NCBI GenBank assembly: GCA_964596595.1
Contig: CAZQUI010000004.1
Location: 1-63,165, forward strand
Direction: 5' to 3'
DNA from: an uncultured Candidatus Saccharibacteria bacterium
GTDB taxonomy: Bacteria; Patescibacteriota; Minisyncoccia; Phycocordibacterales; PALSA-1337
Length of the DNA stretch: 63,165 bases
How positions within the stretch are numbered: position 1 is the stretch's first letter; every line of letters begins with the position of its first letter. Of this stretch, positions 129 to 61,228 are shown one piece after another. The notes beneath the pieces were generated by a model that saw only the letters and a program-made list of their open reading frames with translations, was not told the DNA's origin and searched no databases. The translations under genes were made by a program, and so were the position numbers.

Positions 129-186
129 TCCACATTCTGCGATTCTTTCGCCTTTTTCGGACGATTTTGCATTTTGCGCGAAATTG

Positions 187-4678: not shown

Positions 4679-4716
4679 ACATTCAGCTAGGCTTACCCCT
4701 AGTTATAGCTAACAAG

Positions 4717-33586: not shown

Positions 33587-34375
33587 ATGACACTTCCTTA
33601 TACCATTCTTATATTTGTAGGCATTATTATATTAGTTTTTGTATTAAAAAGACTTGGTTTAGCCATCTGGAACAAAATCAAAGAAAACGAGAACTTAAAA
33701 TACGAGTTTATCACAATCATTGCTCACAAATTCCGTACCCCCTTAACACAGATGAAATGGATTTCTGAAACAATGGTATCCGAAGAAAAAGACTCATATA
33801 AAAAAGAAAATCTTGAAAACATACACCACTCCACTCAACAACTCATAGATCTTACGGGTACACTTATAGAACTCACCGATTCAGACAATGCTTCAACAAA
33901 TTCATACAATTTCGAACATATAAACATATGTGAAATGGTAAAAAGTGTTGCTGACACATTTAAAAATAGTTTCCACGAGAAAAATATCTTTTTAGGTTTA
34001 CAGTGTGCTGCTCCGCAAATTTTTAGCAACATTGATAAACCTAGAATGGAATTTGTCCTTCAAACTATTCTACAAAATTCTATTACCTACTCACCCCCGG
34101 GAAGAAATGTAGAAGTTTTAATCTCCACAGAAAAAAATAGAGCCAAAATAACCGTAAAGGATCATGGTATCGGTATTGACCCAAAAGATATATCAAAAAT
34201 ATTTACAAAATTTTTCAGAACCTCAAACGCCCAAAGAACAGACACAGAAGGTTTTGGTATTGGACTATATTTGGCCCAAGCGATCGTTCGTCGTCATAAA
34301 GGAAAAATACTAGTTTTTTCTGAAGGTTTAGATATGGGAACAACGTTTGAAATTGTTCTACCGGTAACTAAATAA
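33587..34375 (+). CDS. single-TM sensor histidine kinase (HisKA, HATPase)
   Basis: HKFRTPL, NSITYS, VKDHGIGI, GFGIGL; TATAAT 8 nt before the ATG. Confidence 0.92.
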   Translation: MTLPYTILIFVGIIILVFVLKRLGLAIWNKIKENENLKYEFITIIAHKFRTPLTQMKWISETMVSEEKDSYKKENLENIHHSTQQLIDLTGTLIELTDSDNASTNSYNFEHINICEMVKSVADTFKNSFHEKNIFLGLQCAAPQIFSNIDKPRMEFVLQTILQNSITYSPPGRNVEVLISTEKNRAKITVKDHGIGIDPKDISKIFTKFFRTSNAQRTDTEGFGIGLYLAQAIVRRHKGKILVFSEGLDMGTTFEIVLPVTK

Positions 34376-36378: not shown

Positions 36379-36984
36379 TTATCCGACAATCTCGACTAAA
36401 GTTCCACGTTTACCGGGTATTGCTCCTGAAACATACATGACATTCTCTGTTGGGTCAATATGTACGATCTTGAGATTCTTAACGGTTATCCGATCTGAAC
36501 CCATACGACCCGCCATGCGTGTACCGACTGGAACACGTGTACGCAAACCTCCACCGATAGAACCCGGTTCACGTTCTGAATGTTTTTGACCATGAGTACG
36601 AGGTCCTCCACCGAAACCGTGTCTCTTGACTACACCTTGGAATCCCTTACCTTTTGAAGTGGCACTAACAGTAACATTGTCTCCTGAAGCGAATTGAGAA
36701 AGATCGATCTTGTCTCCAACCTTTAGTGATGGCTGATCAACTCTAAATTCTGTAATTGCAGCAAATGAGCCCAAATCTTTCAAATGTCCGCGAACAGCTT
36801 TTGATAAACGTTCTGGCTTACGAGAACCTTCACCTATTTGAAGAGCTTCATAACCATCTTTATCCTTTGTACGAACTTGTGTAACCACATTTGATCGCAC
36901 TGAAACAGCTGTAACAGGCACTGCTACTCCTTCAGTGGTAAAAATTTGGGTCATATTAAGCTTTCTTCCGAGGATGAATTTCAT
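36379..36984 (-). CDS. rplC: 50S ribosomal protein L3
   Basis: KLNMTQIF, SKGKGFQGVVKRHGF, REPGSIG, MAGRMG, GAIPG. Confidence 0.99.
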   Translation of the reverse strand: MKFILGRKLNMTQIFTTEGVAVPVTAVSVRSNVVTQVRTKDKDGYEALQIGEGSRKPERLSKAVRGHLKDLGSFAAITEFRVDQPSLKVGDKIDLSQFASGDNVTVSATSKGKGFQGVVKRHGFGGGPRTHGQKHSEREPGSIGGGLRTRVPVGTRMAGRMGSDRITVKNLKIVHIDPTENVMYVSGAIPGKRGTLVEIVG

Positions 36985-36999
36985 GGCAGTTCTTTTGCG

Positions 37000-37404
37000 T
37001 TACATCATTTTTACATCAATATTGACTCCTGACGGCAAACTAAGATTTGTCAGAGCTTCAATAACTTTTGGATTTGGATTTATAATATCAATGAGACGTT
37101 TGTGTACACGCATCTCAAATTGTTCACGAGAATTCTTGTCTATGAATGATGCGCGGTTGACCGTGTATTTCTTGATTTCGGTCGGCAAAGGCACCGGACC
37201 ATGTACTTCGGCATCATATCGAGCGGCTGTGTCCATGATCTGACGGAGCGAGGCATCAAGAATTTTGTGCTCGTATGCTCTGACACGGATGCGGAGGTGT
37301 GGTGCATCGCTTGAAACCGTGGCTTTGCGAGCACGAGCAGGTTTGTCACTGGCCGTTTTCGCAGTCTTAGCGGATTCATGAGATTTAGTTGTTTTTGAAA
37401 CCAT
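37000..37404 (-). CDS. rpsJ: 30S ribosomal protein S10 with basic N-terminal extension
   Basis: RIRVRAYEH..LD, GPVPLPT, SREQFE.RVHKRLIDI, GVNIDV. Confidence 0.98.
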   Translation of the reverse strand: MVSKTTKSHESAKTAKTASDKPARARKATVSSDAPHLRIRVRAYEHKILDASLRQIMDTAARYDAEVHGPVPLPTEIKKYTVNRASFIDKNSREQFEMRVHKRLIDIINPNPKVIEALTNLSLPSGVNIDVKMM

Positions 37405-37417
37405 GTTAATTTGTTGA

Positions 37418-37672
37418 CTAATTATATTGAACCTTCTCTGATAATGTCAGGATTCCAACTAAAACAATAAAAATAATTGACCAGACTATAATTCCAGAGA
37501 TACCATTTTGATAAAAACCCATAAAACCAAGACCGAAAGAGACAACTGCGGGAACCAAAGCAATCAATCCAATAATACGTGCCTTTTTTCCTTTTAATAC
37601 TTTATTTTTCGAAATTTTCATTTCCCCTCTCCAGAGAAGGAAGATTCCGACAATAAATAATATAATATCCAT
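37418..37672 (-). CDS. small 3-TM hypothetical membrane protein between tuf and rpsJ
   Basis: 84 aa, three hydrophobic segments, 9-nt and 13-nt gaps to neighbours. Confidence 0.75.
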   Translation of the reverse strand: MDIILFIVGIFLLWRGEMKISKNKVLKGKKARIIGLIALVPAVVSFGLGFMGFYQNGISGIIVWSIIFIVLVGILTLSEKVQYN

Positions 37673-37681
37673 TTCAATAAT

Positions 37682-38866
37682 TTAAGCGACTATTTTAGTG
37701 ATAACTCCTGCACCAACTGTCTTACCTCCTTCACGAACTGCAAAACGCTGTTGTGCATCAAGAGCAACTGGAGATACGAGTTTAACTTTGAAAGTAACAG
37801 TATCACCTGGCATAACCATTTCTTGAGTAAGAGTTACTTCACCAGTAACGTCTGTAGTACGAATATAGAACTGAGGCTTATAACCAGTAAAGAATGGAGT
37901 ATGACGACCACCTTCTTCTTTCTTAAGAACGTATACCTCTGCTTCAAACTCAGTATGAGGTTTTGAACTACCTGGTTTAGCGAGAACTTGACCACGAGAA
38001 ACACCATCTTTAGCCACACCACGAAGAAGAAGACCAGCATTATCTCCAGCAATAGCTTGCTTGAGTTGTTTATTGAACATTTCGATACCAGTTACAACGG
38101 TCTTGGAAGTATCTTTGAATCCAACGATTTCAACTTCATCGTTTAAGTTCAAAATACCGCGCTCTACACGACCAGTAACCACTGTTCCGCGTCCTTCGAT
38201 GGAGAAAATATCTTCGATAGGCATAAGGAAAGGTTTATCAGTTTCACGAACTGGCTCTGGGATAAAGGTATCCAAAGCATTCATAAGTTCATCGATCTTA
38301 GCTGTCCAAACAGGATCTCCTTCGAGAGCCTTAAGACCTGAACCACGAATAACTGGAGCTGCTTTACCATCGAAACCGTTTTTAGTGAGGAGTTCACGCA
38401 CTTCTTCCTCAACAAGATCCAAAAGATCAGCTTCTGCTACAGCGTCACATTTGTTAAGAAACACAAGAACACGAGGAACACCAACTTGCTTTGCAAGAAG
38501 GATATGTTCGCGTGTTTGCGGCATAACACCATCAAGAGCAGATACTACTAGAATAGCACCGTCCATTTGAGCGGCACCGGTAATCATGTTCTTGATATAG
38601 TCAGCGTGACCTGGGGCGTCTATGTGAGCATAATGACGTTTATCTGACTCGTATTCTACGTGAGCCAAAGAAATAGTAACTATTTTTGATGCATCACGAA
38701 CAGTTCCTCCTTTTGCGATATCTGCATAAGCTTTTGCATTTGCGAGACCTTTTTTTGATTGAACCGCCAAGATAGAGGCTGTCAAAGTAGTTTTGCCGTG
38801 GTCAACGTGACCAATTGTTCCAACGTTTACGTGTGGCTTTGTACGATTGAATTCTGCTGTTGCCAT
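37682..38866 (-). CDS. tuf: elongation factor Tu with atypical switch I
   Basis: [39 protein letters not shown]; switch I reads [16 protein letters not shown]. Confidence 0.99.
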
Positions 38867-39002
38867 AATATTATTTTATTGCCCTGTATTTTTTGAGTGC
38901 CATCGCCTGGGTGCGTGCGTAACGCGCAGACGACATAACTCAAAAAATGAAGGGATAAATTATTAAAGTTTATTAAAAACGCCAAATAGGCGCGTAATTG
39001 CC

Positions 39003-39031
39003 ATACTAGCATTAGTTACTTATAACGTCAA
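39003..39031 (-). promoter_or_regulatory. sigma70 promoter of tuf-rpsJ-rplB
   Basis: TTGACG (39031-39026), 17 nt, TAGTAT (39008-39003), TGn extension. Confidence 0.8.
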
Positions 39032-39036
39032 CAAAA
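39020..39036. repeat. 17-bp direct repeat, copy 1
   Basis: ttataacgtcaacaaaa, identical to 41507-41523. Confidence 0.9.
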
Positions 39037-39090
39037 TGTACACCTGCTACATATAGTGCTTCTTAGTTAAAAAATATTACTACAATATAA

Positions 39091-41322
39091 TTACCCCGAT
39101 TGAGCAGAAATAAATAGAACAGGTGCTGGTTTAAGAGGAACGATAAATACAGGTACTTCAAGAGTTGTCAGGTTGCCTGCTTGGTCCCTAGAATATACTT
39201 TGATGTAATATGACATTCCACGAGTAAGATCAGGAATGATAACTGAATGGTTAGATGTATATGTAGTAGAAATCGTTGGTATCATCATACCTGGTAACGA
39301 AGTACCATATTCAACTTGAGTTGTTGCATCTTCATTTGTAACCCAAGATATCTCAATACTTTTATTAAAGAGTTTCTTTAGTCTTAAATTAGAGATCACT
39401 GGCGCTATGGTATCTGGAGTGTTATGAGGTGACATATTATCCTCACCAACTTTTAATACAACAAAAACATTAAACTCTATTGGTGTATGATCTTTATTTA
39501 AATGATTAACATTACCAATAATTGGTGATACTACTTGCAAGTTCAAAGGCAAAACAACATTTGGATCAAACGATCTGTAAGTACCATTTACCACTGGTGT
39601 GCCGAAATAATTTTGCGCATCTCTAATCTCAAATTTGTCTCCATCTACAAGTCCTGATGTACTCAAATCTAATGTTACACTATTATTTTTTTGCCAATTC
39701 CATACAACTATATTTGCTCTCCCTTTTTCGTATTTATTTGGACGTATAATAATCTTATTTTCAGGAATATCTGTTAAACTTAGAGTACTGTTTTTCTCCC
39801 ATGTTGGCAAATCACTTAAATACTTCCAACCAGGAGCACTATATGGCGATATTTCCCAACCGGCTTTAGTCAAAACCCTAGGATCATTTTCATCAAACTG
39901 ATCTGCTCCATAGTATTTATTATAATTCCAATCGGCATTTGAATAACTAAAACCTGTTGGCATAATAAAACTAAGAACTACTCTATTTGCTCCAAAATTA
40001 TAAAAGGTGTTATTTTTTACTGTAACTTTTTGGTATTCTTTTATCCCAAACACTCCCCCATCTACACCACTAGGCATAGCTTCTGCCACATAATTACCAA
40101 TAGCAACTGCTTCTCCGTTATTTTTTGCTACATAACCAAAACCAATACCATTCCGATAAGCATTGTTATAATTAATGGTATTTAAATTGGCTGGCTGTAC
40201 AGCAGTTGTAATAGCGATACCTCTATCAGGATTATCAAAGACTATGTTACCTTCAAATGTAACACCGTTACAAAAACCACTTTCACCGTGACATTTCATT
40301 CCACCAGTAAAATTTTTAAATGATATAACGTCACTAATTAGAATATTGCCCACTTCGTTTTGACTATAAATACCTCCTCCTCTGGTCCATCCGTTTGGTT
40401 GAGAAGGATTTGAATTATCATAAATACCATTCCCCCACAAAAGATTGCCGTATATTTCACCTTGGTCAGATTGCTTCCAAAAACCAATTGCAGGATGTCC
40501 AACATTATAAATAATATTATTTATTGACTTATTACCAACTCCTACCGCTTGTAAATTTAATCCGCAACCTTTGTTAAACTGATCAGTAAAACGTTCTTCA
40601 CGTACACTAGTAATTTCTAATCCCCAAAACCAGGTATAACTTCCACTATGATCTATAATGCAACCACCTTTGATAATAGCTGTACCCACTGGAATATTTA
40701 CAAAATCTGCGGGCGCAGAGGCAACTTCAACATTATATTTGTTAGCATCTGCAGGATTTTTACTGTAAACACTAGAAGGATTCAAAAGATACAAACCAAT
40801 ACCATTTATTCGCGCCGTATAACCAAGTGGCCATTTTTCACCATTAGTAATACGCATCTCGTATCTAGTCGTCCAACCACTTATAGGTGTAATAGGTTCT
40901 GCTAAAGTAGCTTGAAAATTATCATTTATAACAACCTTTTCATTATTATAATTTCTAACGACAATTGGAGCAGAAGCTGTGCCTTTAATCTTACTTGTAA
41001 ACGGACCAGTATATGTTCCACTTCTCAACCATATCGTATCTCCTGGTTTTACTACATAATTTTTATTTGTTGAAACAGTATTATCTTCCAACGCCGTTAT
41101 TAAATCCCAAGGATTATTAATGCTACCATCTCCAGACGATGAACCTGTTGGGGAAACATACCAAGAAGAACCACCTGTACCAACTAAAGCCAATTGAGTA
41201 TTAAATACTAAACTTATTTTATTATATTGATTTAAAAAATAAACCGTAGAAATTGTAGCCATAAGGGCCACGAGTCCAACAAAAAAAGTAGCTACGTACG
41301 AAAATTTATAATTATAAGACAT
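39091..41322 (-). CDS. membrane-anchored right-handed beta-helix protein with C-terminal fibronectin type III domain
   Basis: N-terminal TM; WYVSPTG..GDGS..NPW start; N/G-rich beta-helix rungs; RPNKYEKGRANIVVWNW; Fn3 motif WVTNEDATTQVEYG...YYIKVYSRDQAGN. Confidence 0.85.
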   Translation of the reverse strand: MSYNYKFSYVATFFVGLVALMATISTVYFLNQYNKISLVFNTQLALVGTGGSSWYVSPTGSSSGDGSINNPWDLITALEDNTVSTNKNYVVKPGDTIWLRSGTYTGPFTSKIKGTASAPIVVRNYNNEKVVINDNFQATLAEPITPISGWTTRYEMRITNGEKWPLGYTARINGIGLYLLNPSSVYSKNPADANKYNVEVASAPADFVNIPVGTAIIKGGCIIDHSGSYTWFWGLEITSVREERFTDQFNKGCGLNLQAVGVGNKSINNIIYNVGHPAIGFWKQSDQGEIYGNLLWGNGIYDNSNPSQPNGWTRGGGIYSQNEVGNILISDVISFKNFTGGMKCHGESGFCNGVTFEGNIVFDNPDRGIAITTAVQPANLNTINYNNAYRNGIGFGYVAKNNGEAVAIGNYVAEAMPSGVDGGVFGIKEYQKVTVKNNTFYNFGANRVVLSFIMPTGFSYSNADWNYNKYYGADQFDENDPRVLTKAGWEISPYSAPGWKYLSDLPTWEKNSTLSLTDIPENKIIIRPNKYEKGRANIVVWNWQKNNSVTLDLSTSGLVDGDKFEIRDAQNYFGTPVVNGTYRSFDPNVVLPLNLQVVSPIIGNVNHLNKDHTPIEFNVFVVLKVGEDNMSPHNTPDTIAPVISNLRLKKLFNKSIEISWVTNEDATTQVEYGTSLPGMMIPTISTTYTSNHSVIIPDLTRGMSYYIKVYSRDQAGNLTTLEVPVFIVPLKPAPVLFISAQSG

Positions 41323-41506
41323 GGTGATAAATAAATTAATAAATAAAAATTGTGTCCTCGAGATATAGAAGGACAGACAGTTTTAAAAGAGAGGATCCAT
41401 CGAGGACTTTATTATATCAAAATAAACTACAGTAATTATCCACATTAAACATGCTAAACAATCTCCTTCCGGACAAAGTTTAATCAGAGTCCAAGGAGGA
41501 AATAAT

Positions 41507-41523
41507 TTATAACGTCAACAAAA
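41507..41523. repeat. 17-bp direct repeat, copy 2
   Basis: ttataacgtcaacaaaa, identical to 39020-39036. Confidence 0.9.
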
Positions 41524-41553
41524 AACGCCCTGATTTACATTAGAGCGTTTTTT
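41520..41553 (-). terminator. intrinsic terminator abutting repeat copy 2
   Basis: AAAAACGCTCTAA...TCAGGGCGTTTTTT on the minus strand. Confidence 0.75.
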
Positions 41554-41624
41554 GTTTCTAAAATTTTAGATTTAGTTTAGGGCTTTATATGATGCATTTA
41601 ATGTACCTAGATCAAATTACATCT

Positions 41625-41744
41625 TTAGTATCCAATGATAATTGCCTGCACAGCTGATGAACTGTATGTAAGCCAAGCCAAAAAAGCTAAAATAAGAACA
41701 TACTTCAAATTATCTGTTAAAAAATCTTTTTTTCGTGTAGACAT
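41625..41744 (-). CDS. putative 39-aa single-TM small protein (MSTRKKDFLTDNLKYVLILAFLAWLTYSSSAVQAIIIGY)
   Basis: Translated by hand (below the track cut-off); lies between two terminators; basic N-terminus then a hydrophobic stretch. Confidence 0.45.
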   Translation of the reverse strand: MSTRKKDFLTDNLKYVLILAFLAWLTYSSSAVQAIIIGY

Positions 41745-41822
41745 AATTTATATTAATTATTATATAAGAATTATAACAGTATAAAAGTGTAATGTTATCC
41801 CCATAGCCAAAAAATTCAATGC

Positions 41823-41870
41823 ACAAAAACAATAACCAAACTCCAGTGAGAGTTTGGTTATTGTTTTTGT
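41823..41870 (-). terminator. terminator after fusA
   Basis: acaaaaacaataaccaaactc...gagtttggttattgtttttgt long perfect inverted repeat. Confidence 0.85.
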
Positions 41871-41885
41871 AACTTGGATATTCTA

Positions 41886-44030
41886 TTACTTTCTCTTCTC
41901 AGCAATCTCCTTTTCTACATTAGATGGTACAACTTCATAATGATCGAACTCCATCATGGCACTACCTTGACCTGAAGTCATAGAACGAAGCGCAGTGGTA
42001 TAACCAAACATTTCTGAAAGTGGAACCTTTGCATGAATTGCGATATTTTGACCACGAGGTTCAGAACCTTCAACTTGACCACGTTTTGAAGCAATAGAAC
42101 CATTGACATCACCCATGTATTTTTCAGGAGCAATAACTTCTAATTTCATAATTGGCTCTAGAATTACTGGCTTGGAACGTTTAGCAGCTTCCTGAAAAGC
42201 TTGTGAAGCAGCAATTTTGTAAGCAATTTCAGATGAATCGACGTCATGGTAAGAACCGTGGATAAGTTCACAGGAAACATTTACCATACGAAAACCAGCA
42301 ACAATACCTCGATCCATGGCTTCATGAACACCTTTTTCAACTGCAGGAATAAATTCGTTAGGAATCACACCACCCTTGATTGAGTTGATAAATTCAAAAT
42401 CATCGTACCGTTTAATATTTTTTGGAATCTTCTCACCTTCTGGCCAAGCTTCCATTGGTTTCAAAATTATTTTTACGTGACCATATTGACCTTTACCTCC
42501 TGTCTGTTTGATATATTTATGTTCTGCTTCGGCGGTACCCATAATAGTTTCACGATAGGCAACCTGTGGCTCTCCTACATTTGCTTCAACTCCAAATTCA
42601 CGTTTCATACGATCGATCATAATTTCTAAATGAAGTTCACCCATGCCAGAAATGATAGTTTCTCCTGTTTCTGGATTTGAAGAAATTCTAAATGTTGGAT
42701 CTTCGTTACCAAGTTTCTTAAGAGCCATACCCATCTTTTCTTGGTCAGCTTTTGTCTTTGGTTCAATACGTAGAGAAACCACTGGTTCCATGAACTTGAT
42801 AGTTTCGAGAACAATAGGATTGTTTTCATCACAAAATGTATGAGAAGTTAAAGCATCTTTTAGACCAACGGCGGCGGCGATTTCCCCAGCAAAAACTTTT
42901 TTAACTTCTTCACGCTTATCTGCTTGCAGACGAACTATGCGACCCAATCTTTCTTTTTTACCCGTTGTTGAGTTGTAAAGATATGATCCAGACTCTACTG
43001 AACCAGAATATACACGGAAGAATGTAAGGGCTCCTACAAACGGATCGTTTTGAAGTTTGAAAGCAAGAGCTGAAAAAGGCTCTGTGTCTGAAGCGTGACG
43101 AATAACTTCTTCACCAGTATTTGGATTGATACCTTTTACAGGAGGAATATCTAAAGGCGATGGAAGATAATCGACAACAGCATCTAGAACCAACTGAACT
43201 CCAACATTTTTGAGAGCAGAACCAGTAAATACCGGGAAAATTTTATTTGCAATCACGGCTTTACGTGTAAGACCCTTGAGTTCTTCCATTGTAAACTCCT
43301 TACCTTCAAGGAAATGAGACATTGTGGCATCATCAGTTTCTACAATCTTTTCGATCATTTCAGCACGATACTTCTTTGCTTCTACCATCATTTCTTCTGG
43401 GATCTCTTTTTCAATTATATTAATGCCTTTTTCACCTTCAAAATAAAAAGCTTTCATGCGCATAAGATCGACAACTCCAACATGGTCACCTTCGAGACCA
43501 ATAGGTAATTGAAAACGAATAGCATTTTTATTGAGACGGTCTAAAATAGAAGCAAAAGAACGCTCAAAAGAAGCACCTGTTCTGTCCATTTTATTGATAA
43601 AACAAAGGCGTGGTACGTTACCCTCGTCAGCATAACGCCAATTTGTTTCAGATTGAGGCTCCACACCAGCAACTCCATCGAAAACTACAACTGCACCATC
43701 TAGAACGCGAAGTGAACGTTTTACTTCTACAGTAAAGTCGATATGTCCTGGAGTGTCAATGATATTGAAGCGGACCTTTTTGGAAACATCCTCTTTTGGC
43801 ATATAGGTTGGATTCCAAAAACAGGTGATAGCAGCTGCAGTAATAGTAATACCACGTTCTCGCTCTTGTTCCATCCAATCAGTAGTAGTTTCACCTTCAT
43901 GGACTTCGCCGATCTTGTGGATCATGCCTGTATAGTAAAGAATACGTTCTGAAGTTGTGGTTTTACCCGCATCAATATGAGCAATGATGCCGAAGTTACG
44001 CATGCGTTCAAGTGGATAGTCGCGATTCAT
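41886..44030 (-). CDS. fusA: elongation factor G
   Basis: RNFGIIAHIDAGKTT, EQERGITI, DTPGH, NKMD; true start MNRDY at 44030, the track start overlaps rpsG. Confidence 0.99.
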   Translation of the reverse strand: MNRDYPLERMRNFGIIAHIDAGKTTTSERILYYTGMIHKIGEVHEGETTTDWMEQERERGITITAAAITCFWNPTYMPKEDVSKKVRFNIIDTPGHIDFTVEVKRSLRVLDGAVVVFDGVAGVEPQSETNWRYADEGNVPRLCFINKMDRTGASFERSFASILDRLNKNAIRFQLPIGLEGDHVGVVDLMRMKAFYFEGEKGINIIEKEIPEEMMVEAKKYRAEMIEKIVETDDATMSHFLEGKEFTMEELKGLTRKAVIANKIFPVFTGSALKNVGVQLVLDAVVDYLPSPLDIPPVKGINPNTGEEVIRHASDTEPFSALAFKLQNDPFVGALTFFRVYSGSVESGSYLYNSTTGKKERLGRIVRLQADKREEVKKVFAGEIAAAVGLKDALTSHTFCDENNPIVLETIKFMEPVVSLRIEPKTKADQEKMGMALKKLGNEDPTFRISSNPETGETIISGMGELHLEIMIDRMKREFGVEANVGEPQVAYRETIMGTAEAEHKYIKQTGGKGQYGHVKIILKPMEAWPEGEKIPKNIKRYDDFEFINSIKGGVIPNEFIPAVEKGVHEAMDRGIVAGFRMVNVSCELIHGSYHDVDSSEIAYKIAASQAFQEAAKRSKPVILEPIMKLEVIAPEKYMGDVNGSIASKRGQVEGSEPRGQNIAIHAKVPLSEMFGYTTALRSMTSGQGSAMMEFDHYEVVPSNVEKEIAEKRK

Positions 44031-44067
44031 ATTAATCTTTAAAATTATATTACGATAAATTATTATA

Positions 44068-44538
44068 CTACCATGCAAAGTGAGCAAAAGCTTTATTAGC
44101 TTCAGCCATTTTGTGAACATTTTCACGCTTTTTAACTGCTTCACCTTCATTTTTAGAAGCGGCAATTATTTCATCAGCCAATTTTTCGGCTATAGGTTTA
44201 CCTTTTTTACCTCGAGCAGCTTCAACTATCCATTTCATGGACAAAGCCTGTTTACGCTCTGGTCGAACTTCACGTGGAACCTGATAGTTGGCACCACCCA
44301 CACGACGAGAACGGACTTCCATGAGAGGAGAAGTATTTTTTAAAGCCAATTCAAATAATTCCATAGGATTCTCAGTTTTTGCTTTTTCTTTTATAAGATC
44401 CATACAATCATGCACGATTGAACGAGCAATGTTCTTTTTTCCTGATTCCATTACGTAATTGATCAATTTTGAAATTTTTAGAGAATCATAAACTGAATCT
44501 ATTTCTAATTCTCTTTTTATATTTAATTTGCGTCGCAT
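44068..44538 (-). CDS. rpsG: 30S ribosomal protein S7
   Basis: [34 protein letters not shown]. Confidence 0.99.
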
Positions 44539-44543
44539 GATAG

Positions 44544-44963
44544 TTATACTTTAGCTACTTTTGGTTTTTTATTTCCGTACTGACTACGACCTTTACGGCG
44601 CTTTTCAACACCAGTGCAGTCCAAAACCCCACGAACAATTGAATAACGAAGACCGACATCTTTTACACGACCACCGCGAAGTAATACTACAGAGTGTTCT
44701 TGTAAAGCGTGACCTTCCCCTGGAATGTAAGCCGTAACTTCTACACCATTTGAAAGACGGACACGGGCAATCTTACGAACAGCTGAGTTTGGTTTCTTTG
44801 GAGTTTTTGTTGTAACTTTTACACATACACCACGTTTGAATGGTGAAGGAAAGAAAACCGGACGATTTTCGATACTATTGAAAGTACGGGTCAAAGCGAT
44901 TGATTTTGATTTTCGCTTAAACAACTTTCTACTCTTTCTTGTGAGCTGATTAATTGTTGGCAT
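44544..44963 (-). CDS. rpsL: 30S ribosomal protein S12
   Basis: [43 protein letters not shown]. Confidence 0.99.
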
Positions 44964-45100
44964 ATTTACTAAATTACAAACTTAATTGGCAAAACTGAAT
45001 TCTTCATGATTTTGAGCTTGAGTTTTTACCCTAATCATTACTCAGCTTTACCTTGATAAACAAACCTATTTCAAAAATTACTTTCTGAGACAGTGAGAGT

Positions 45101-45129
45101 ACCTTACCACAACACCTCATTCGTGACAA
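45101..45129 (-). promoter_or_regulatory. sigma70 promoter of rpsL-rpsG-fusA
   Basis: TTGTCA (45129-45124), 17 nt, TAAGGT (45106-45101), TGn extension. Confidence 0.65.
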
Positions 45130-45137
45130 GAATGAAA

Positions 45138-45165
45138 CAGGACCCTCTCCTGAGAGAGGGTCCTG
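45138..45165 (-). terminator. strong hairpin after the 49-aa ORF
   Basis: caggaccctctc-ctga-gagagggtcctg, 12-bp perfect stem. Confidence 0.75.
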
Positions 45166-45178
45166 GTGAAAAAACTAC

Positions 45179-45328
45179 TTACCTGAGCTGCTGAGCACTC
45201 CGAACAATTCCACGTCGGCCATGATGACCAGGTTTCAGGCCGCTGGCGTTCACACCGGCAATCAAAGAGAGACGTTGCAGGGGTTTTCCATTATCCTGAC
45301 CGCGGAGGTGCTTTCGGTATTTTGACAT
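45179..45328 (-). CDS. putative 49-aa highly basic small protein (MSKYRKHLRGQDNGKPLQRLSLIAGVNASGLKPGHHGRRGIVRSAQQLR)
   Basis: Translated by hand; ATG to TAA fills the GC-richer island exactly; AAAGAG upstream, strong hairpin downstream. Confidence 0.6.
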   Translation of the reverse strand: MSKYRKHLRGQDNGKPLQRLSLIAGVNASGLKPGHHGRRGIVRSAQQLR

Positions 45329-45422
45329 AACTCTGTACTCTTTTTGGTTTTTGTTAGAACAGAACTACGGTTCGGTGTTAAATAATAAATATAAATAATA
45401 AAAAAGTCAAAACGTAAACAAG

Positions 45423-46028
45423 TTATAATCCGGTAAACAGACTAAAGACAACAGAAACTAAAGGTGAAACTAGACCCCACAAGAAAAATACTACCACTAA
45501 AATAAACAATGGAGCATACGTTTCCAAAGTCATACGTAAACGACCATATTGATTTGGTAAAATAGCAAAAAGTAACTTAGAACCATCAAGCGGTGGTAAT
45601 GGTATCAAATTGAATATTGCCAAAATTATATTTATAAGAACAACATATGTTGATATTTCGACAAATGGAGTGATAAATGGATCACCTTGTATAACAAGAC
45701 GAATTACCGTTCCAAAAATCAAAGCAATAGCAAGATTTGATACGGGACCTGCGGCGGCAATAAGAAATTCTCCCCTGCGTTTATTTTTTATATTATATGG
45801 ATTGTATTGTACTGGCTTGGCCCAACCAAAAGTAAAACCAGCCAAAGATGTAACAATCGGAACAATAACTGAGCCCACAGGATCAAGATGTTTGAGAGGA
45901 TTGAGTGTTAATCTTCCCTGTAATCGAGGAGTAGGATCACCCAAGAAATCAGCCATGTAACCATGAGAAAGTTCATGAACCACTACCGATAACACGAGAA
46001 TAGAAATAGAAAAAATAGTAATGAGCAT
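45423..46028 (-). CDS. site-2 protease family (M50) intramembrane metalloprotease
   Basis: VVHELSHG, RLTLNPLKHLDP.G, GWAKPV, AAAGPVSN, FNLIPLPPLDG. Confidence 0.95.
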   Translation of the reverse strand: MLITIFSISILVLSVVVHELSHGYMADFLGDPTPRLQGRLTLNPLKHLDPVGSVIVPIVTSLAGFTFGWAKPVQYNPYNIKNKRRGEFLIAAAGPVSNLAIALIFGTVIRLVIQGDPFITPFVEISTYVVLINIILAIFNLIPLPPLDGSKLLFAILPNQYGRLRMTLETYAPLFILVVVFFLWGLVSPLVSVVFSLFTGL

Positions 46029-48842: not shown

Positions 48843-50213
48843 TTAGCTTGAAATTTTAACTGGATTAGGAAGTTTCATCTTCATATAAAATATAAAATAA
48901 ATAAAATACACCCCCACTACAATCCAACCAGAAAATTGTGGAAAATGAATGGTAGCCAGAGGAATACGAGCAGAATATTCTACAATTAAAAGCTCATAAG
49001 AAAGCAATCCGTGAGCTAACCAAGCAATAGTTTGTGAAATTTGAACTGAAATAAAACCTGTTATACCAGTCAAAAATACAGCTAACATAGTCAGTGGTAC
49101 AAACGGTAAAACCAGAATATTAGAAATAAATCCAACAATAGAAATGCTACCCATCATATAGATAATATAAGGCGAAACAAAAATCTGTGTGGCTATACTC
49201 GAGGCCACGATACCACGAATCCCAAACTTTTCCGTAATAAAACCCAACCGTGCTTCTATGGGTGAAGAAAGCAGAATGAGTCCAAATGTGGCTAAAAAAG
49301 AAAGTTGAAATGAGGGATCGTGTAAGAGAATTAGTGGATTTTGAATAATCATAATTAATCCTGCCAAAAAGAGCGCTCGCTTTACCTGATAATCTCGACG
49401 TAAAAAATCGGCGAACAAAGCAATACTCGACATGCAACACGAACGAACGACAGTGGCACCTCCGCCAACGAGTATTCCGAAAGCAACAATACCCAAAGCT
49501 CCCGCTATAATTCCCCAAACACGTGGCAAAAAAGAAAGTAACTTTCTCAAAGCATCGGCCACAATAGTAATGTTGTAACCAGACAAAACAACAATATGAA
49601 TAAGACCAACTGTCCTAAAATTGGCAATCAGTTCGGCCCCCAGAGCACTCTTCTCCCCTACTAAAAGTCCAGCAGCCAAAGCTGAATGTGGTTCACCTAA
49701 AACTTTTTCCAAATTATTTACAAATTTTCTTTTTAATAAATAAAGTATTGAGGAAATATTTTTAGAACCAGAACCAATAAAATTAACTTGAGCACTTTTG
49801 ATTTCATAAAAAACATGATCTTTGGCCAAATATCCTTCATAGTCAAACTCTCGACCATCATCGCTCCGAAAATTAAAAGGTTTTGAAAGTCTTCCTTGAA
49901 ATGAAATTTCATCACCGTAAACAAAACGTGGATACAAAGGTGTTTTCATTCTAACTAAAACATCTTGAGCACACGACGATGATTTTGATTTTAAAATATC
50001 CTCTTCTGTAACCGGCTTTAATTTATTTACCAAAACCACAAAAACTTGACCGGTTTCCTTACGTTCTGGTTCTTGAATAATTTTACCTGTACCAATCGAA
50101 ACCTGTTTTAAACAAATACCTATATCTGGTTTTTGGATTTCAAATGAAAAATATAACCTTATAATTGCAACAAATACAAATAAGCTCCAAAATATAAAAA
50201 CTCCTCTTTTCAT
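48843..50213 (-). CDS. comEC: ComEC/Rec2 competence channel (OB plus Competence domain, no MBL)
   Basis: DYEGYL, GLIHIVVLSGYNI, VVRS, SFQLSFLAT. Confidence 0.95.
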   Translation of the reverse strand: MKRGVFIFWSLFVFVAIIRLYFSFEIQKPDIGICLKQVSIGTGKIIQEPERKETGQVFVVLVNKLKPVTEEDILKSKSSSCAQDVLVRMKTPLYPRFVYGDEISFQGRLSKPFNFRSDDGREFDYEGYLAKDHVFYEIKSAQVNFIGSGSKNISSILYLLKRKFVNNLEKVLGEPHSALAAGLLVGEKSALGAELIANFRTVGLIHIVVLSGYNITIVADALRKLLSFLPRVWGIIAGALGIVAFGILVGGGATVVRSCCMSSIALFADFLRRDYQVKRALFLAGLIMIIQNPLILLHDPSFQLSFLATFGLILLSSPIEARLGFITEKFGIRGIVASSIATQIFVSPYIIYMMGSISIVGFISNILVLPFVPLTMLAVFLTGITGFISVQISQTIAWLAHGLLSYELLIVEYSARIPLATIHFPQFSGWIVVGVYFIYFIFYMKMKLPNPVKISS

Positions 50214-50258
50214 AGAAAGATTTTATATTTTCAAAATAAATATATTGTGAAAAAACTT

Positions 50259-50993
50259 TCAAAAACTAGTGAATTTTTTGATAATTTCTTGCTCCTCTTC
50301 TTTATTAAAAGATTTTTGAAACCGAGCCTTTACACCTTTTACTCGCTTTTCACATTCTGGCCAGGTTTTATGAATTTCAATTTTTCCATCAACCAAACTA
50401 ACGTAAGAATAGGCTTTGGCAGAAGATCGTGAAGAAGATGATTTTTTATCATTTAATTTCATTTGATCATGAGATATATCGGTAATATCTTTTATTGAAT
50501 ACCTCGAAACAGATCCCTTATAGAGCTCAATTTTTAAATCATCAGCAAAAGCTGTGGCAATTTCATCGCACCTTTCATTGCCTTTTATACCAATATGACC
50601 ACCGACATATTGCCACGAGATAGATTTACCCTGAACCAACTCATCCAATTCCATCCACAAATCTTTATTAATAACGTCTTCTTTGGCTTGAGTCATCCAA
50701 CCATTTCGCTTCCACCCTTTAATCCATTGAGTAATACCTTTAATGACATAAGAAGAATCGGTGTAAATTTTTACAGAATAATCATCTTTATTTTTGATAT
50801 TTTTCAAACCTTCTATGACTGCTTTTAATTCCATCTTATTATTTGTAGTTTTTTCTTCTCTTCCACCCAGCTCGGTAACTATCGCGTTACCATTTTCCAT
50901 TTGAACTTTTTCATTTTCAATTATGATCGTTCCCCATCCTCCTGGACCAGGATTACCACGTGATGATCCATCAGTAAAAATAATTATTTCCAT
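50259..50993 (-). CDS. rnhA: ribonuclease HI with C-terminal hybrid-binding (viroplasmin-like) domain
   Basis: FTDGSSRGNPGPGGWG, TTNNKMEL, YTDSSY, GHIG..GNERCD; tail HKTWPECEKRVKG. Confidence 0.95.
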   Translation of the reverse strand: MEIIIFTDGSSRGNPGPGGWGTIIIENEKVQMENGNAIVTELGGREEKTTNNKMELKAVIEGLKNIKNKDDYSVKIYTDSSYVIKGITQWIKGWKRNGWMTQAKEDVINKDLWMELDELVQGKSISWQYVGGHIGIKGNERCDEIATAFADDLKIELYKGSVSRYSIKDITDISHDQMKLNDKKSSSSRSSAKAYSYVSLVDGKIEIHKTWPECEKRVKGVKARFQKSFNKEEEQEIIKKFTSF

Positions 50994-51002
50994 AAAAATA
51001 TA

Positions 51003-52733
51003 CTAACACACATCCACAACTCTTAACCTTAATTCTGTTTTACCAGCAAAATAAGATTTTTCTATAGAAGCCAGCAAATCTATTGGAGTATTTTCCATAA
51101 TTAACTTTGCCCAATTTTCAGTAGCCCCAAAAAAAGCGATGGCAGAAATCTTATTACCATTATCTTTTTTAAAAACTAATTCAATATGATCTTTTGATTT
51201 ACCGAAATGGCGAATAGATGTTGGTGAAACTTTCTTGAAAAGAAAAACTGGTTTTGAATTACCTGTTCCAAAAGGAGCCAATTTTGAAATTTCTTCTTGC
51301 AACCTCCAATCAACGTTGTTTAGGGATAACTCCATATCAACAATCAATTTTGATTCCTCAATATTTTGCTGATCTTTATTATTTAAAACAAAATCATTTG
51401 CTTCATTTAAATACTTTTCCAAGAAATGAATTTCTTCATTAGAGACAGCGAAACCACCAGAATGCTGGTGTCCACCAAAATGAGTGAAGACCCCACTCGG
51501 TACCTTGCGCATTAGTTCCACGATATTAGTTTTACCTTCTGAACGACAAGAACCTTTAATAACATCATCCCCATCTCTTCCCCAAAGAAAGACAGGACGA
51601 TCAAATTCTTCAGCACAAGAATTAGCAACCAGACCCAATAAAGATGGCCTCCAGGAAGGATTACCTAAAACAATCACCTGTGGAACTTTTCCTCCGTGAC
51701 GTTCTTTAATATTTTTTTTAACTTCTTTAACCAAAGAAGCAACTACTCCTTTACGTTCATTATTTATTTCTTCAATATGAGCAACATGAGAATATGCTTC
51801 ATTTTCATCTTCGGTTGAAAGTAAGTTGAAAGCATCCATAGGCACACCCATACGTGAAGCGGCGTTTATTCGTGGTGTAATCATGAAAGCAATGTCATCT
51901 TCAGTTAGATTTTTTTGAGAAATACTGAGCTTAGAAAGCAGTCTCATTAGACCCTTTCGAGGACTTTTACGTAAAACAGTTAGTCCGTAATATGCCAAAA
52001 CTCTATTTTCTCCAGTTAAAGGAACCATGTCCGAAAGAGTGGCGATACCGACCATATCTAATAACCATTTTTCTTGACCATCTTTAAGATCAAAACGATT
52101 TTTCGATAAAATAGCCTGGACTAATTTATATGCAGTTCCTGAACCGCACAGATTTTTATCGGGATATAAGCAATTTTTTTGCTTATGATTGACTATCGCA
52201 AAAGCTGGAGGCAAAACAGGGGGAGGTTCATGATGATCAGTAATGATGACATCAATATTTTTTTCACAGGCACAAGTAACAGCGGCAAAATCAGTAATTC
52301 CACAATCAATAGTGATAATTAATTTAACTCCCTGATTAGCTAATTCTTCTACTGCTGCAACATGCACGCCAAAACCCTCATCATGTCGATGTGGAATATA
52401 AACAATAAAATTTTTAAAATTTATTTTATTAAAAAAATCAGCAAACATAACTGCTCCGGGTATACCATCAGCATCATAATCAGAATAAATAGCAATCTTT
52501 TCATTGCTTTCTACTGACTGGATAATCCTTAACGCAGCTTTTTCTGCATCTTTAAGTAAAAAAGGGTCATGAATATCGCGATCATAATTTGGTTCTATAA
52601 ATTTTTGACCTGTCTGATTGTTTGTAATACCACGATAAAACAAAAGATGAGCCATAACATCAGAAAAAGTGTTTAGTTCCTGTCTTTGAGAAGAAGTAAG
52701 CTTTGGGCGAATAGAATAAGAAGAAATGGACAT
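51003..52733 (-). CDS. recJ: single-stranded DNA exonuclease RecJ
   Basis: YSDYDADG, ITIDCG, ITDHH, LSDMVPL, PRINAASRM, FGGH; start moved to 52733. Confidence 0.97.
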   Translation of the reverse strand: MSISSYSIRPKLTSSQRQELNTFSDVMAHLLFYRGITNNQTGQKFIEPNYDRDIHDPFLLKDAEKAALRIIQSVESNEKIAIYSDYDADGIPGAVMFADFFNKINFKNFIVYIPHRHDEGFGVHVAAVEELANQGVKLIITIDCGITDFAAVTCACEKNIDVIITDHHEPPPVLPPAFAIVNHKQKNCLYPDKNLCGSGTAYKLVQAILSKNRFDLKDGQEKWLLDMVGIATLSDMVPLTGENRVLAYYGLTVLRKSPRKGLMRLLSKLSISQKNLTEDDIAFMITPRINAASRMGVPMDAFNLLSTEDENEAYSHVAHIEEINNERKGVVASLVKEVKKNIKERHGGKVPQVIVLGNPSWRPSLLGLVANSCAEEFDRPVFLWGRDGDDVIKGSCRSEGKTNIVELMRKVPSGVFTHFGGHQHSGGFAVSNEEIHFLEKYLNEANDFVLNNKDQQNIEESKLIVDMELSLNNVDWRLQEEISKLAPFGTGNSKPVFLFKKVSPTSIRHFGKSKDHIELVFKKDNGNKISAIAFFGATENWAKLIMENTPIDLLASIEKSYFAGKTELRLRVVDVC

Positions 52734-52864
52734 TGGGATATTATACCCTACAAACAAAATTAAGCGGGTTATCTTGTATTTTGTTTTTTGCAAGATTATC
52801 ACCACAAATGACAACCTGCTTAATACAGCTAGACTAAAAATTTTTATAGCATTAAAATATCCCT

Positions 52865-56074: not shown

Positions 56075-57496
56075 TCACTTCTCTTCTTGCCAAGAAATAG
56101 TTTGATACTGACTAGAGGTTAACGGAAATGACGGTGGAGGACCGTAAAGTAAATTTGTATCGTATGTAATATCACGACTGCTATAACCAGTACCATCGGT
56201 ATAAGCAAAACCATAACGTTGATTTGTTGCAATCATTCCGTATAGAGTTATCGTGTCACGATCATAATAATTCACTCCTCCAGATTTACAATCATTATCA
56301 TAATAATACCGTCCAACACGACCATTTTGAGCAACCAAAGCAGCATCAATCCTCAAATTTAGAGGACTCCACATTCCAACATTAAAACTATCCTGAGAAA
56401 CTAAAGCAATAACATCTGTACCGTCATAGTGATTATACGTAAGATTATTGTTTACAGTGATACTTCTACGAGTAGCAGCGTTATCAGGAAATCTGGCTGC
56501 AGCTATAGTCAAACGAGCACCGTCTATTTCACCTTCAATCCACAAATGATCCTCAACAAAGATAACTCCATTCGCTGGAAATGGATAGTTTGCAATAAAT
56601 GTTTGATTATTAACACTCCAAGTTCCCCACCCAGCTTGATTTAAAGAATTAGTACAACCATTAGGCGCAGCTCTTAAGGAAGTTACTCGATATAAATCAA
56701 AAGTATCATTATTTTTAAGAAGAATGCGATAGCCCTGTGCACCAGAAGCGTCTATATAGCGACCGTTGGCTTGAGCGTCAGCTTTCATTTGAGCTAAATC
56801 AAAAGTCAAACCAGCAAAATCAAATGATTGAATAGGAAATTGCCTACCAGCCACAAAGACATCTGGCCGACTAGGCACAGCAGCGGGAGGATTAGGGTCT
56901 GCTGGCGATAAAGGTGTGTAAACGCCAAATTTTTGTTGAGTATTACCATCATCAGGATCATCATAAGTACTTTTTGAACTAGTAACCAAATTATGAGATA
57001 AACCTTCAAAACGAATTCCGCCATTTGAATGAATTGGCCCAAAGATCTCAGTTCCCGGCCCAAAACGCATATCATTGTTTGCAACAACAGCAAATTTAGC
57101 CAGTGATGGAATTGCCAAAGTAGCTTGAATCGCACGAGATATTGATGGATTTGATTGCAAAACACCCTTAGATCTAACTTTTACAATTGTGGACCCAATG
57201 GGCGGAGGAGTTATAGTCAATTCGAATTGTCCTACAACATCACCATCAGCATCTTTTACATCATGAATGTAAGGGCCAGGATTACCAGTACCATCTGTAT
57301 AATCTGTAGCCGCATGGGCTAAATGCCAACGATAATATTCGATACCCGCTTCGGCCAATTGAAAAGCTTGTTCGCGATAAGTTACCAATCGAGTTTCTTT
57401 TAATACAGAAGCTCCCCAATTTACTAAACCAATAGTAACTGTAATAGCGATTGACGCAAAAACTAATGTATTTATAAGAATAAAACCTTTTTTCAT
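56075..57496 (-). CDS. PilX-like minor pilin with large C-terminal domain
   Basis: KKG|FILINTLV lacks E5 as PilX/GspK do; AFQLAEAGIE; GPIHSNG. Confidence 0.85.
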   Translation of the reverse strand: MKKGFILINTLVFASIAITVTIGLVNWGASVLKETRLVTYREQAFQLAEAGIEYYRWHLAHAATDYTDGTGNPGPYIHDVKDADGDVVGQFELTITPPPIGSTIVKVRSKGVLQSNPSISRAIQATLAIPSLAKFAVVANNDMRFGPGTEIFGPIHSNGGIRFEGLSHNLVTSSKSTYDDPDDGNTQQKFGVYTPLSPADPNPPAAVPSRPDVFVAGRQFPIQSFDFAGLTFDLAQMKADAQANGRYIDASGAQGYRILLKNNDTFDLYRVTSLRAAPNGCTNSLNQAGWGTWSVNNQTFIANYPFPANGVIFVEDHLWIEGEIDGARLTIAAARFPDNAATRRSITVNNNLTYNHYDGTDVIALVSQDSFNVGMWSPLNLRIDAALVAQNGRVGRYYYDNDCKSGGVNYYDRDTITLYGMIATNQRYGFAYTDGTGYSSRDITYDTNLLYGPPPSFPLTSSQYQTISWQEEK

Positions 57497-58119
57497 AAAT
57501 TATCTTTCAAATTACGAAGTGAAACTTGAGTAGAAAACGTCTTAGCAGGAGGTGGTTTATTTAGATCACTATCAATTACTAAATTAATTTTTATTAACCT
57601 AATTGAAGTCAGTACCAAAGGATAAGTCATGGCGGGAGTAGTGCCATTGTAGGTTGATAAGAAATATTCAAATACCGGTGTAGTTGAAGAATTGGCTATA
57701 CCAGTAGCCACAACCCTCTTTGATTCCTGAGCCATATTATAAACAGCCGGAGAACCAGTAGGTTTTGTAAGACCACGGTAAAGAGTTGTACTCGCGAGAT
57801 AATAACGAACCTGATCAGTCAGACCATCACTATCAACATCAGCATAAAAAGTAATTGAACTTGTAGCAGCTGACAAAATAGCAAATGAACCATTTGCCGA
57901 AGAAGCAGAGGCGCGAAATTCACGAGACATAACTTTTAACAAATTATTTGCTTCTTGAATATTTGTTAATCTAATCTGAGTAGAACGATTGTAACTCAAA
58001 ATATTGAATTGAAATGTTCCAACCGCCACCATGACAATTACGATGATCGACAAGGTAACGAGTATTTCAGTAAGAGTCATACCTTGTTTAGTTTTTAACT
58101 GTAATTTTCTAAAGAACAT
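57493..58119 (-). CDS. PilW-like minor pilin
   Basis: KQG|MTLTEILV prepilin cleavage motif; overlaps next gene by 4 nt. Confidence 0.85.
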   Translation of the reverse strand: MFFRKLQLKTKQGMTLTEILVTLSIIVIVMVAVGTFQFNILSYNRSTQIRLTNIQEANNLLKVMSREFRASASSANGSFAILSAATSSITFYADVDSDGLTDQVRYYLASTTLYRGLTKPTGSPAVYNMAQESKRVVATGIANSSTTPVFEYFLSTYNGTTPAMTYPLVLTSIRLIKINLVIDSDLNKPPPAKTFSTQVSLRNLKDNL

Positions 58120-58148
58120 ACATCTTATTTTAACTTATTTTTAAACAA

Positions 58149-59957: not shown

Positions 59958-59960
59958 ATA

Positions 59961-61178: not shown

Positions 61179-61228
61179 CTTTTTTAATTTTAAACAAAAA
61201 TTTAAAATTTAAAATTTACCTAATTATA

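Follow-up and report, generated by a model that had tools for sequence, protein, structure and literature searches.

Cis-mobilizable elements (CIMEs) and pseudo-staphylococcal cassette chromosome (pseudo-SCC) elements are decayed or non-autonomous integrative elements that keep both attachment sites, attL and attR, without an integrase (PMC5704250). The minimal mobile elements (MMEs) of Neisseria (Snyder et al., 2007) are, as far as the definition relayed in PMC3082526 goes, exchanged by homologous recombination in their flanks, with no target duplication. Here I describe a locus that can be compared to both, in a 63,165-nucleotide stretch of contig CAZQUI010000004.1 (hereafter the window), from an uncultured Patescibacterium. 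In the spacer between fusA and tuf, the genes for EF-G and EF-Tu, a 2470-bp segment with a single gene, encoding a predicted cell-surface protein (hereafter the cargo), is bounded by a perfect 17-bp direct repeat, one copy of which carries the -35 box of the tuf promoter. A related genome possesses a single copy of the repeat at the same place, and lacks the segment. The event produced a repeat-bounded genomic islet, and adds one more case to an already known type.

In its form, the cassette most resembles the CIME or pseudo-SCC type. Like these, it is a short, cargo-only element with identical direct repeats and a single repeat in the empty site, and its repeat lies across a functional element of a housekeeping locus, an element that is kept intact. 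It differs from them in that the target is a promoter -35 box and a terminator U-tract, not the 3′ end of a gene, and in that the cassette holds no remnants of integration or transfer genes.

The repeat, TTATAACGTCAACAAAA (TTTTGTTGACGTTATAA on the minus strand, which is the coding strand here), occurs exactly twice in the window, at positions 39020–39036 and 41507–41523, 2487 bp apart and with 17 of 17 positions identical. No third copy was found in the 63-kb window when up to two mismatches were allowed; with three, one additional site appears, unrelated and located within the tmRNA gene. The original prediction, made from the sequence of the window, had reported this pair, its positions and spacing, and a single enclosed gene, all of which are correct; the list of open reading frames (ORFs) shows 39091–41322 as the only credible one between the copies. 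The search for further copies that it had proposed is the one given above, covering the 63-kb window.

The comparison that carries the argument is to locus L001, a 6.3-kb Logan contig from run SRR8944127, which bears the closest public tuf (P0002, 99% protein identity). Upstream of tuf, L001 reads TAAAATTTTAGTGACAAAAAACGCCCTTATGAAAATTAAGGCGTTTTTTGTTGACGTTATAAGTAACTAATGCTAGTATGGCAATTACGCGCC, that is to say a hairpin terminator, one 17-mer, the tuf -10 and the leader. In BLASTN alignments, L001 166–1516 matches window 39036–37682 at 93.5% identity, and L001 107–182 matches window 41579–41507 at 87%. The lone 17-mer of L001 thus aligns to both window copies, the intervening 2470 bp being absent, and the homology swaps from one window flank to the other exactly at the repeat. 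The junction predicted from the window is found in L001 over 41 nt, and a homologous terminator hairpin lies in the same place. The insertion or deletion, and its exact end points, are established by this alignment. The single-copy junction of terminator and promoter, which the original prediction had expected in relatives lacking the gene, is therefore present, and the insertion model finds confirmation in a genome independent of the window.

Over their shared length, L001 and the window are 91–93.5% identical in DNA, and are thus close relatives rather than members of one population. The profile of tuf identity between them is flat at ∼93%, with no imported block next to the junction in this one comparator. 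A fusA search for the other half of the L001 locus returned no recorded fusA with more than 93% identity, and exact-protein look-ups with the tuf and cargo proteins of the window returned no recorded identical protein.

This alignment also bears on two trivial explanations. The first is that the repeat arose by chance, or that it reflects two similar promoters, unrelated to the insertion. Exact direct 17-mer pairs number three in the window, against 0.6 expected in order-1 Markov simulations of the same composition (7% of which reach three), and AT-rich promoter regions resemble one another; the expectation of 0.04 for a pair applies to this one word, chosen post hoc. However, the switch of flank in L001 exactly at the repeat already contradicts chance, the lack of a -10 at the distal copy also counts against it, and this explanation is hardly credible. 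It is because of its placement in two adjacent intergenic spacers, and above all because of the L001 comparison, that the pair exceeds chance.

The second is an assembly artefact, in which the chromosome path was wrongly joined, at the 17-mer, to a distinct 2.5-kb molecule or to foreign DNA that contains the same word. An insert exactly bounded by a short repeat is what such an error would leave. Nevertheless it is very improbable: both the G+C content of the insert (33–36%) and its orientation fit the genome, one surface-protein gene on a 2.5-kb circle would make an implausible replicon, and 17 bp is shorter than the k-mers of the usual assemblers.

The anatomy of the insertion can be followed base by base along the minus strand, on which all of its features lie. 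An intrinsic terminator hairpin with a 12-bp stem including A/U tracts (41520–41553; inverted repeat I8, 41517–41534 / 41539–41556) has the arms AAAAAACGCTCT-loop-AGGGCGTTTTTT (41553–41520), and is directly followed by the distal 17-mer (41507–41523), which forms the left junction. The last four Ts of the terminator U-tract are the first four bases of this copy, which runs on (41523 to 41507) into ATTATTTCCTCC. Neither the sequence nor the promoter scan yields a -10 at 16–18 nt past it, and the scan finds no site starting there, leaving a stranded -35. The 5′ part of the cassette (41323–41506) follows, with an extended -10 promoter of its own, TGaTATAAT (41419–41411), and a hairpin-containing 5′ untranslated region, the fold of which is not significantly stable (z = −1.4). 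No similarity to this part or to the cassette flanks was identified elsewhere in the window or in the retrieved related loci. Next come the cargo gene (39091–41322, 743 amino acids) and a 3′ flank (39037–39090) in which the terminator scan and the sequence reveal no terminator. The proximal 17-mer (39020–39036) forms the right junction and carries the tuf -35, TTGACG (39031–39026), which the promoter scan pairs, 17 nt further on, with the extended -10 TGcTAGTAT (39003–39011). A structured 136-nt leader (38867–39002), identified by folding and covariation, leads into tuf. The corresponding junction words are GGGCGTTTTTTGTTGACGTTATAAATTATTTCC (attL-like), GCAGGTGTACATTTTGTTGACGTTATAAGTAACTAATGC (attR-like), GGCGTTTTTTGTTGACGTTATAAGTAACTAATGC (empty site) and GCAGGTGTACATTTTGTTGACGTTATAAATTATTTCC (circle). 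That one copy abuts a terminator U-tract and has no -10, while the other supplies the working -35 of tuf, had been read correctly in the original prediction, as both the sequence and the promoter scan agree.

This arrangement suggests how tuf tolerates the insertion. The proximal copy, together with the untouched spacer and -10, would reconstitute the tuf promoter, whereas the distal copy would complete the terminator U-tract and otherwise be an inert, dead half-promoter. As the cargo gene is co-directional with tuf and has no terminator, its transcripts run on toward tuf, and this read-through could only add to tuf transcription. The earlier suggestion of an insertion that does not harm tuf is thereby upheld, the promoter being intact via the duplicated -35 region. 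Since insertions that break the promoter would not survive, such a neat outcome may reflect selection as much as mechanism.

The related loci give an indication of where the 17-mer came from. The comparison set consists of nine loci, from seven distinct genomes (L001–L004, L086, L087 and L222–L224). L223 has the initial 11 nt of the repeat, TTTTGTTGACG, as its own tuf -35 region, and the -10 position holds TGCTAAGAT in L002, L086, L087, L223 and L224, the TG-extended -10 being kept throughout. On account of this conservation, the 17-mer is native promoter sequence that was duplicated, not imported. A conservation edge at about -18 of the tuf promoter, seen among distant relatives, was considered as a recombination junction and rejected, as the empty-site loci L086 and L087 differ there too, which indicates ordinary divergence of an unconstrained spacer. 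In L223 (∼14460–14490), the terminator of the upstream gene meets the tuf promoter in the sequence TTTTTTGTTGG-TTTTTGTTGACG. Here, just where the window has its repeat, the segment upstream of the -35 is partially duplicated in tandem.

The fusA-tuf spacer is differently occupied among these relatives. In L086 and L087 (tuf 91% identical) it holds no gene, and its ∼200 nt consist of the fusA terminator, the promoter TTTGACT-17-TGCTAAGAT and the leader. In L002, L003, L004 and L222 (tuf 94%), and in L223 and L224 (90–91%), it encodes a secreted protein of 900–1200 amino acids with PG_binding_1 and PKD/TIG domains; in L003 this gene is unannotated and cut by the contig end, within the same arrangement as in the other loci with 94% tuf identity. 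In L001, another gene lies upstream of tuf, ending in NLDSFKTAYKALN before its stop. The original prediction had proposed looking for different cargo in relatives, and this is what the six loci with the PG_binding/PKD gene contain. No repeats flanking this occupant were found in L002, L223 or L224. Downstream of it, L002 (7262–7400) and L224 (∼7900–8040) have in common a promoter-like site, a ∼95-nt structured RNA and a terminator, followed by a small reverse-strand ORF; the RNA has no Rfam match.

The window itself seems to have kept two stumps of a gene that formerly occupied the slot, both on the minus strand. A 39-amino-acid, signal-peptide-like ORF (41625–41744, ending SSAVQA) has a promoter of its own, ATAACA-17-TATAAT with TG (41798–41770), and is probably the 5′ stump of an older gene; the PG_binding/PKD proteins of the relatives have N-termini ending in VHAQ or VQAQ, a homology that is suggestive only. 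At 41572–41616, frame translation reveals a putative 3′ stump, FDLGTLNASYKALN followed by a stop (peptide ending LNASYKALN), which matches the end of the upstream gene of L001. If these stumps derive from an older occupant, the slot has turned over more than once. Altogether, the pattern indicates that, in this clade, the fusA-tuf spacer has repeatedly hosted genes for secreted or surface proteins.

The beta-helix cargo is absent from L001 and from the other eight related loci, and because no relative possesses it, and no protein more than 51% identical to it was found, a gain in the lineage of the window is the simplest reading. The reverse is conceivable, namely that the cargo and both repeats are ancestral, and that L001 lost the gene through a slipped or RecA-independent deletion between the 17-mers. 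Short direct repeats classically give rise to deletions, and one here would leave exactly the L001 junction. It would however require a gain as well as a loss while leaving the origin of the repeat unexplained, and it has to contend with the absence of the cargo in the relatives and of any close homologue among 5.8 billion proteins, so that this direction of change is quite improbable.

At the level of the locus, the spacer seems to behave like a Neisseria MME, on the account of MMEs given above. The conserved flanks fusA and tuf enclose differing whole-gene cassettes (beta-helix or PG_binding/PKD), or none, in an organism with a predicted DNA-uptake kit. On that same account, the exchange of MMEs in their flanks leaves the 17-bp repeat unexplained. 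The surrounding region would also tolerate insertions, judging from gene content. An 84-amino-acid ORF between tuf and rpsJ (37418–37672, minus strand), hydrophobic and membrane-protein-like, is found in the window only, the tuf-rpsJ spacer being just 3–41 nt in L001, L085, L086 and L087. With no flanking repeats and no family match, it appears to be a second lineage-specific insertion. Extra genes are also present between rpsG and fusA in L002 and L087; in L002 and L222, a 23S_rRNA_IVP-family gene is located there.

The nature of the cargo is established from its predicted structure. A Pfam scan returned only sub-threshold or weak matches to Beta_helix, fn3 and Pur_ac_phosph_N, and homologues of the cargo carry PF22842 (Pel9A-like beta_helix). 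The AlphaFold model, built with 36 homologues, has a pLDDT of 82 and a pTM of 0.76, and consists of an N-terminal helix (residues 10–28), a long right-handed beta-helix (strand-rich coils, residues ∼50–480) and two C-terminal beta-sandwich domains. The N-terminal helix is read as a predicted transmembrane anchor, and the C-terminal domains are predicted to be Ig/Fn3-like, Foldseek Fn3 matches spanning the C-terminus. Foldseek assigns a probability of 1.0 to 7w1d, 1ru4, 5olq and 9ozl, and the best-ranked structures are the Klebsiella K1 capsule lyase, depolymerases and tailspikes of phages, the pectate lyase Pel9A, a rhamnogalacturonan lyase and RbmB.

The central domain of the cargo therefore resembles the beta-helix lyases and depolymerases in predicted fold, as well as in the PF22842 of its homologues. 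Unlike these, it is only 9–16% identical in sequence to the solved lyases, is predicted to possess a membrane anchor and Fn3-like domains, and has no phage relatives, none having been found by viral and phage protein searches. A phage origin is thus unsupported despite the depolymerase-like fold. Most plausibly, the cargo is a predicted cell-surface polysaccharide-cleaving enzyme, and the surface location proposed in the original prediction is plausible from the AlphaFold model and the Foldseek matches. Because cultivated Patescibacteria live as epibionts (PMC10633639), a role in dealing with the host envelope may be proposed.

The best homologue of the cargo among the 5.8 billion proteins lies at a different locus (L088, 9001–14065). 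It is 51% identical and 1142 amino acids long, with an added LamG domain, and its gene converges with a neighbouring one for a large serine recombinase (Resolvase, Recombinase and Zn_ribbon domains) on a Patescibacteria-like contig. This recombinase was set aside as a clue to the cassette, as the locus is another one, on an unrelated contig which ends ∼230 bp past the recombinase gene, with the element boundaries out of view.

The best explanation for these observations, to which I assign a probability of about one half, is that the locus is the scar of a gene gain, in which a 2470-bp segment integrated inside a 17-bp stretch, and that the cassette is now static. The ancestral spacer would have consisted of an upstream gene, a hairpin terminator, TTTTTTGTTGACGTTATAA, GTAAC..TGcTAGTAT, the structured leader and tuf, as L001 still does. 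The segment would have entered by a crossover or a staggered break within the 17-bp stretch, from the last four Ts of the terminator U-tract through the tuf -35 hexamer, bringing one gene with its own promoter, for a membrane-anchored, polysaccharide-lyase-like beta-helix/Fn3 protein. The 17 bp would have ended up on both sides of the insert, with the proximal copy continuing to drive tuf. A duplicated target of this kind is accounted for either by a crossover in sequence common to the chromosome and a circular DNA, or by fill-in of a staggered break.

The preferred route would be Campbell-type integration of circularised incoming DNA via the shared 17-mer, with a recombinase provided in trans or since lost, which would make the cassette a non-autonomous element of the CIME or pseudo-SCC kind. 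The integrating enzyme is inferred, and this route, while it is the leading one, is held at clearly less than even odds.

Several observations weigh against the gene-gain reading or its att-like route. The exact 17-mer pair is by itself near the chance level, and unremarkable in the window. Only one filled and one empty example are available, and the empty-site genome is ∼7% diverged. The 17-mer shows no convincing dyad symmetry. No integrase is encoded in the cassette or in the 35 ORFs of the window that were scanned; that the cassette contains no recombinase had been claimed in the original prediction, and Pfam indeed finds no such domain in its ORF, nor any recombinase or transposase match among the 35. 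Finally, neither a cognate integrase-bearing element nor a second cargo bounded by the 17-mer was found at this site in the nine related loci or among the listed matches of the wider scans, a further difference to CIMEs and pseudo-SCC elements.

Those scans gave the following results. A metagenome scan with the 31-nt tuf promoter gave no match, while one with the 17-mer gave at least 120 stretches; among the matches listed, all are unrelated, and about half belong to one repeat family of the metagenome sample Ga0209679. In ∼60 contigs of this sample (loci L103–L221), the 17-mer is embedded in a repeat that is conserved, high-copy and longer than 110 nt. One such contig ends in CCCTAA telomere-like repeats, and the family looks eukaryotic and unrelated to the window, illustrating that the word can be common elsewhere. 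A viral scan with the 17-mer gave 12 matches in five contexts (the commonest in six contigs), none of them to tuf or the cassette. In a contig scan with the tuf protein, the matches listed include only distant relatives, at most 82% identical, which are of no use for the empty-site comparison.

Other classes of mobile element share some features with the cassette. As for a transposon or insertion sequence (IS), a sequence that is single in the empty site is perfectly duplicated on both sides of the insert. There is however no transposase, the inverted-repeat scan of the cassette found no terminal inverted repeats pairing its ends, and the insert is one ordinary gene with a promoter. Target duplications of transposons and IS elements are usually 2–14 bp, shorter than the 17 bp seen here. 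Transposition with a staggered cut is disfavoured on these grounds, and identity as an IS, a transposon or a miniature inverted-repeat transposable element was rejected, given the lack of terminal inverted repeats and a beta-helix gene as the sole ORF. As for an integron cassette, a single-gene unit without a recombinase is inserted beside a promoter. Unlike such cassettes, the 3′ flank (39037–39090) contains no attC-like imperfect palindrome, the junction GTTGACG as read from the sequence does not fit the GTTRRRY core, no intI was found in the ORFs scanned, and the gene has its own promoter, which typical cassettes lack. This identity was rejected on the attC, core and intI findings.

A tentative alternative, nearly as likely as the att-like route, is a one-off, homology-facilitated illegitimate recombination following natural transformation, with neither att site nor recombinase, and with the 17-bp length accidental. 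Here, the donor would be a related strain in which the cargo already preceded the same tuf promoter immediately, so that the incoming fragment included its own copy of that promoter. Its right end would have recombined by homology in the tuf leader or tuf, and its left end would have been joined illegitimately 17 bp into the recipient promoter, through AT-rich microhomology (TTATAA, for example), stranding the recipient -35. The lack of any detected recombinase, terminal inverted repeat or att family argues in its favour, as do a slot between two conserved genes in which the cargo differs by genome, and the other lineage-specific insertions nearby, which have no repeats. DNA uptake is likely within reach of the organism. 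A type IV pilus cluster at 56075–62977 (minus strand) encodes a PilB-like ATPase and a PilC-like platform protein, along with a pair of pilin-like proteins that bear N_methyl motifs, one of them having a CarboxypepD_reg domain as well. Synteny with L086, L087 and L223 would place ComEC, RecJ and RNase H at ∼48843–52814, in the conserved block that lies upstream of rpsL; together with the pilus genes, they likely form a DNA-uptake kit. For Patescibacteria, experiments have demonstrated natural competence (PMC10633639). This route nevertheless needs an unseen donor, as no genome was found with the cargo next to tuf, and tuf shows no shift in divergence that would mark an imported block. In addition, work on pneumococcus and Acinetobacter indicates that illegitimate transformation events usually delete, rather than duplicate, recipient DNA.

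In a third possibility the cassette is still active, with a recombinase encoded elsewhere acting on the 17-mers, so that the surface enzyme is reversibly switched on and off within the population. Perfect direct repeats, a precise empty site in a relative, and the promoter on the cassette are compatible with this, and the closest cargo homologue lies beside the L088 serine recombinase; pseudo-SCC elements lacking a recombinase, with bounding repeats of 15–18 bp, are also known. Yet the filled and empty states are seen in genomes diverged by ∼7%, not in one population, no recombinase was found among the 35 ORFs scanned, and neither in the nine related loci nor in the metagenome and viral matches listed does the 17-mer bound a second cargo. 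The L088 recombinase, for its part, lies on an unrelated contig, at another locus and with a G+C content that is higher by eye. An active cassette is accordingly improbable, and excision or on/off switching, as raised in the original prediction, is unsupported. Likewise unlikely is the wider reading in which the 17-mer is a genuine att site, and in which a recombinase encoded elsewhere would shuttle recombinase-less, promoter-equipped cassettes for host-interaction surface enzymes into the tuf -35 region of some Paceibacteria-like Patescibacteria, rebuilding the promoter each time.

The wider setting is that of an organism of Parcubacteria/Paceibacteria type, with a G+C content of 36% in the window; its nearest tuf and fusA proteins are annotated in metagenome-assembled genomes of Patescibacteria, Parcubacteria, Taylorbacteria or Paceibacterota. 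The locus is the str/S10 ribosomal cluster, with the minus-strand order rpsL-rpsG-fusA-[insert]-tuf-rpsJ-rplC-rplD-rplW-rplB. On the left, rpsL (44544–44963) and rpsG (44068–44538) are followed by fusA (41886–44030), the conserved left flank of the variable slot, encoding an EF-G of 714 amino acids, identified by its Pfam EF-G domains and with its start codon taken from the translation. A hairpin terminator (41811–41882; 33-nt inverted repeat I1) lies beyond it. On the right, tuf (37682–38866), the conserved right flank, encodes an EF-Tu of 394 amino acids, identified by translation and with Patescibacteria homologues 99–91% identical; rpsJ (37000–37404) follows. All of these are on the minus strand. 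A search of Rfam over 36500–45500 gave no real match, only spurious ones to the fusA terminator hairpin.

Further features of this cluster were observed. Encoded on the opposite strand, a histidine-kinase gene (HisKA and HATPase_c; 33587–34375, plus strand) occupies the space between rplB and rpsS within the S10 operon, and is conserved in relatives (L001, L002, L086 and L087). The ribosomal operons of the clade are broken up at several spacers. The tuf leader (38867–39002) begins, right after the promoter, with a short GC hairpin and U-run (38993–38979), attenuator-like, which a long hairpin follows. Its minimum free energy has a z of −5.5, and 10 covarying pairs (double-sided changes) are found in 7 related genomes, with no Rfam match; it may be an undescribed cis-regulatory leader in this clade. 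Far from the locus, ARAGORN reports a tRNA-Ser with anticodon ACT (loop TTACTAA; window 186–273, minus strand) near an inverted tRNA-Ser with anticodon GCT (1196–1285, plus strand), and a tRNA-Ile with anticodon TAT (4716–4790, minus strand). A serine tRNA with A34 and an isoleucine tRNA with UAU are both unusual for bacteria.

The locus provides a clean case, resolved to the base pair, of a reduced, uncultivated bacterium of epibiont type gaining a surface enzyme, with a relative keeping the empty site. It suggests that a duplicated -35 region can make insertion into the promoter core of an essential gene neutral, and its distinctive feature is that the duplicated target is the tuf -35 core fused to a terminator U-tract. 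Should the 17-mer have no recombinase acting on it, the locus represents an ordinary scar of insertion. If it does have one, this would constitute a small cassette system with a natural docking site, useful for genetics in these organisms, and should the 17-mer be a genuine att site, cassettes would be docking at the core promoter of a gene that is both essential and highly expressed. The secreted, surface and cell-wall-binding proteins encoded in this slot are likely determinants of host attachment in Patescibacteria.

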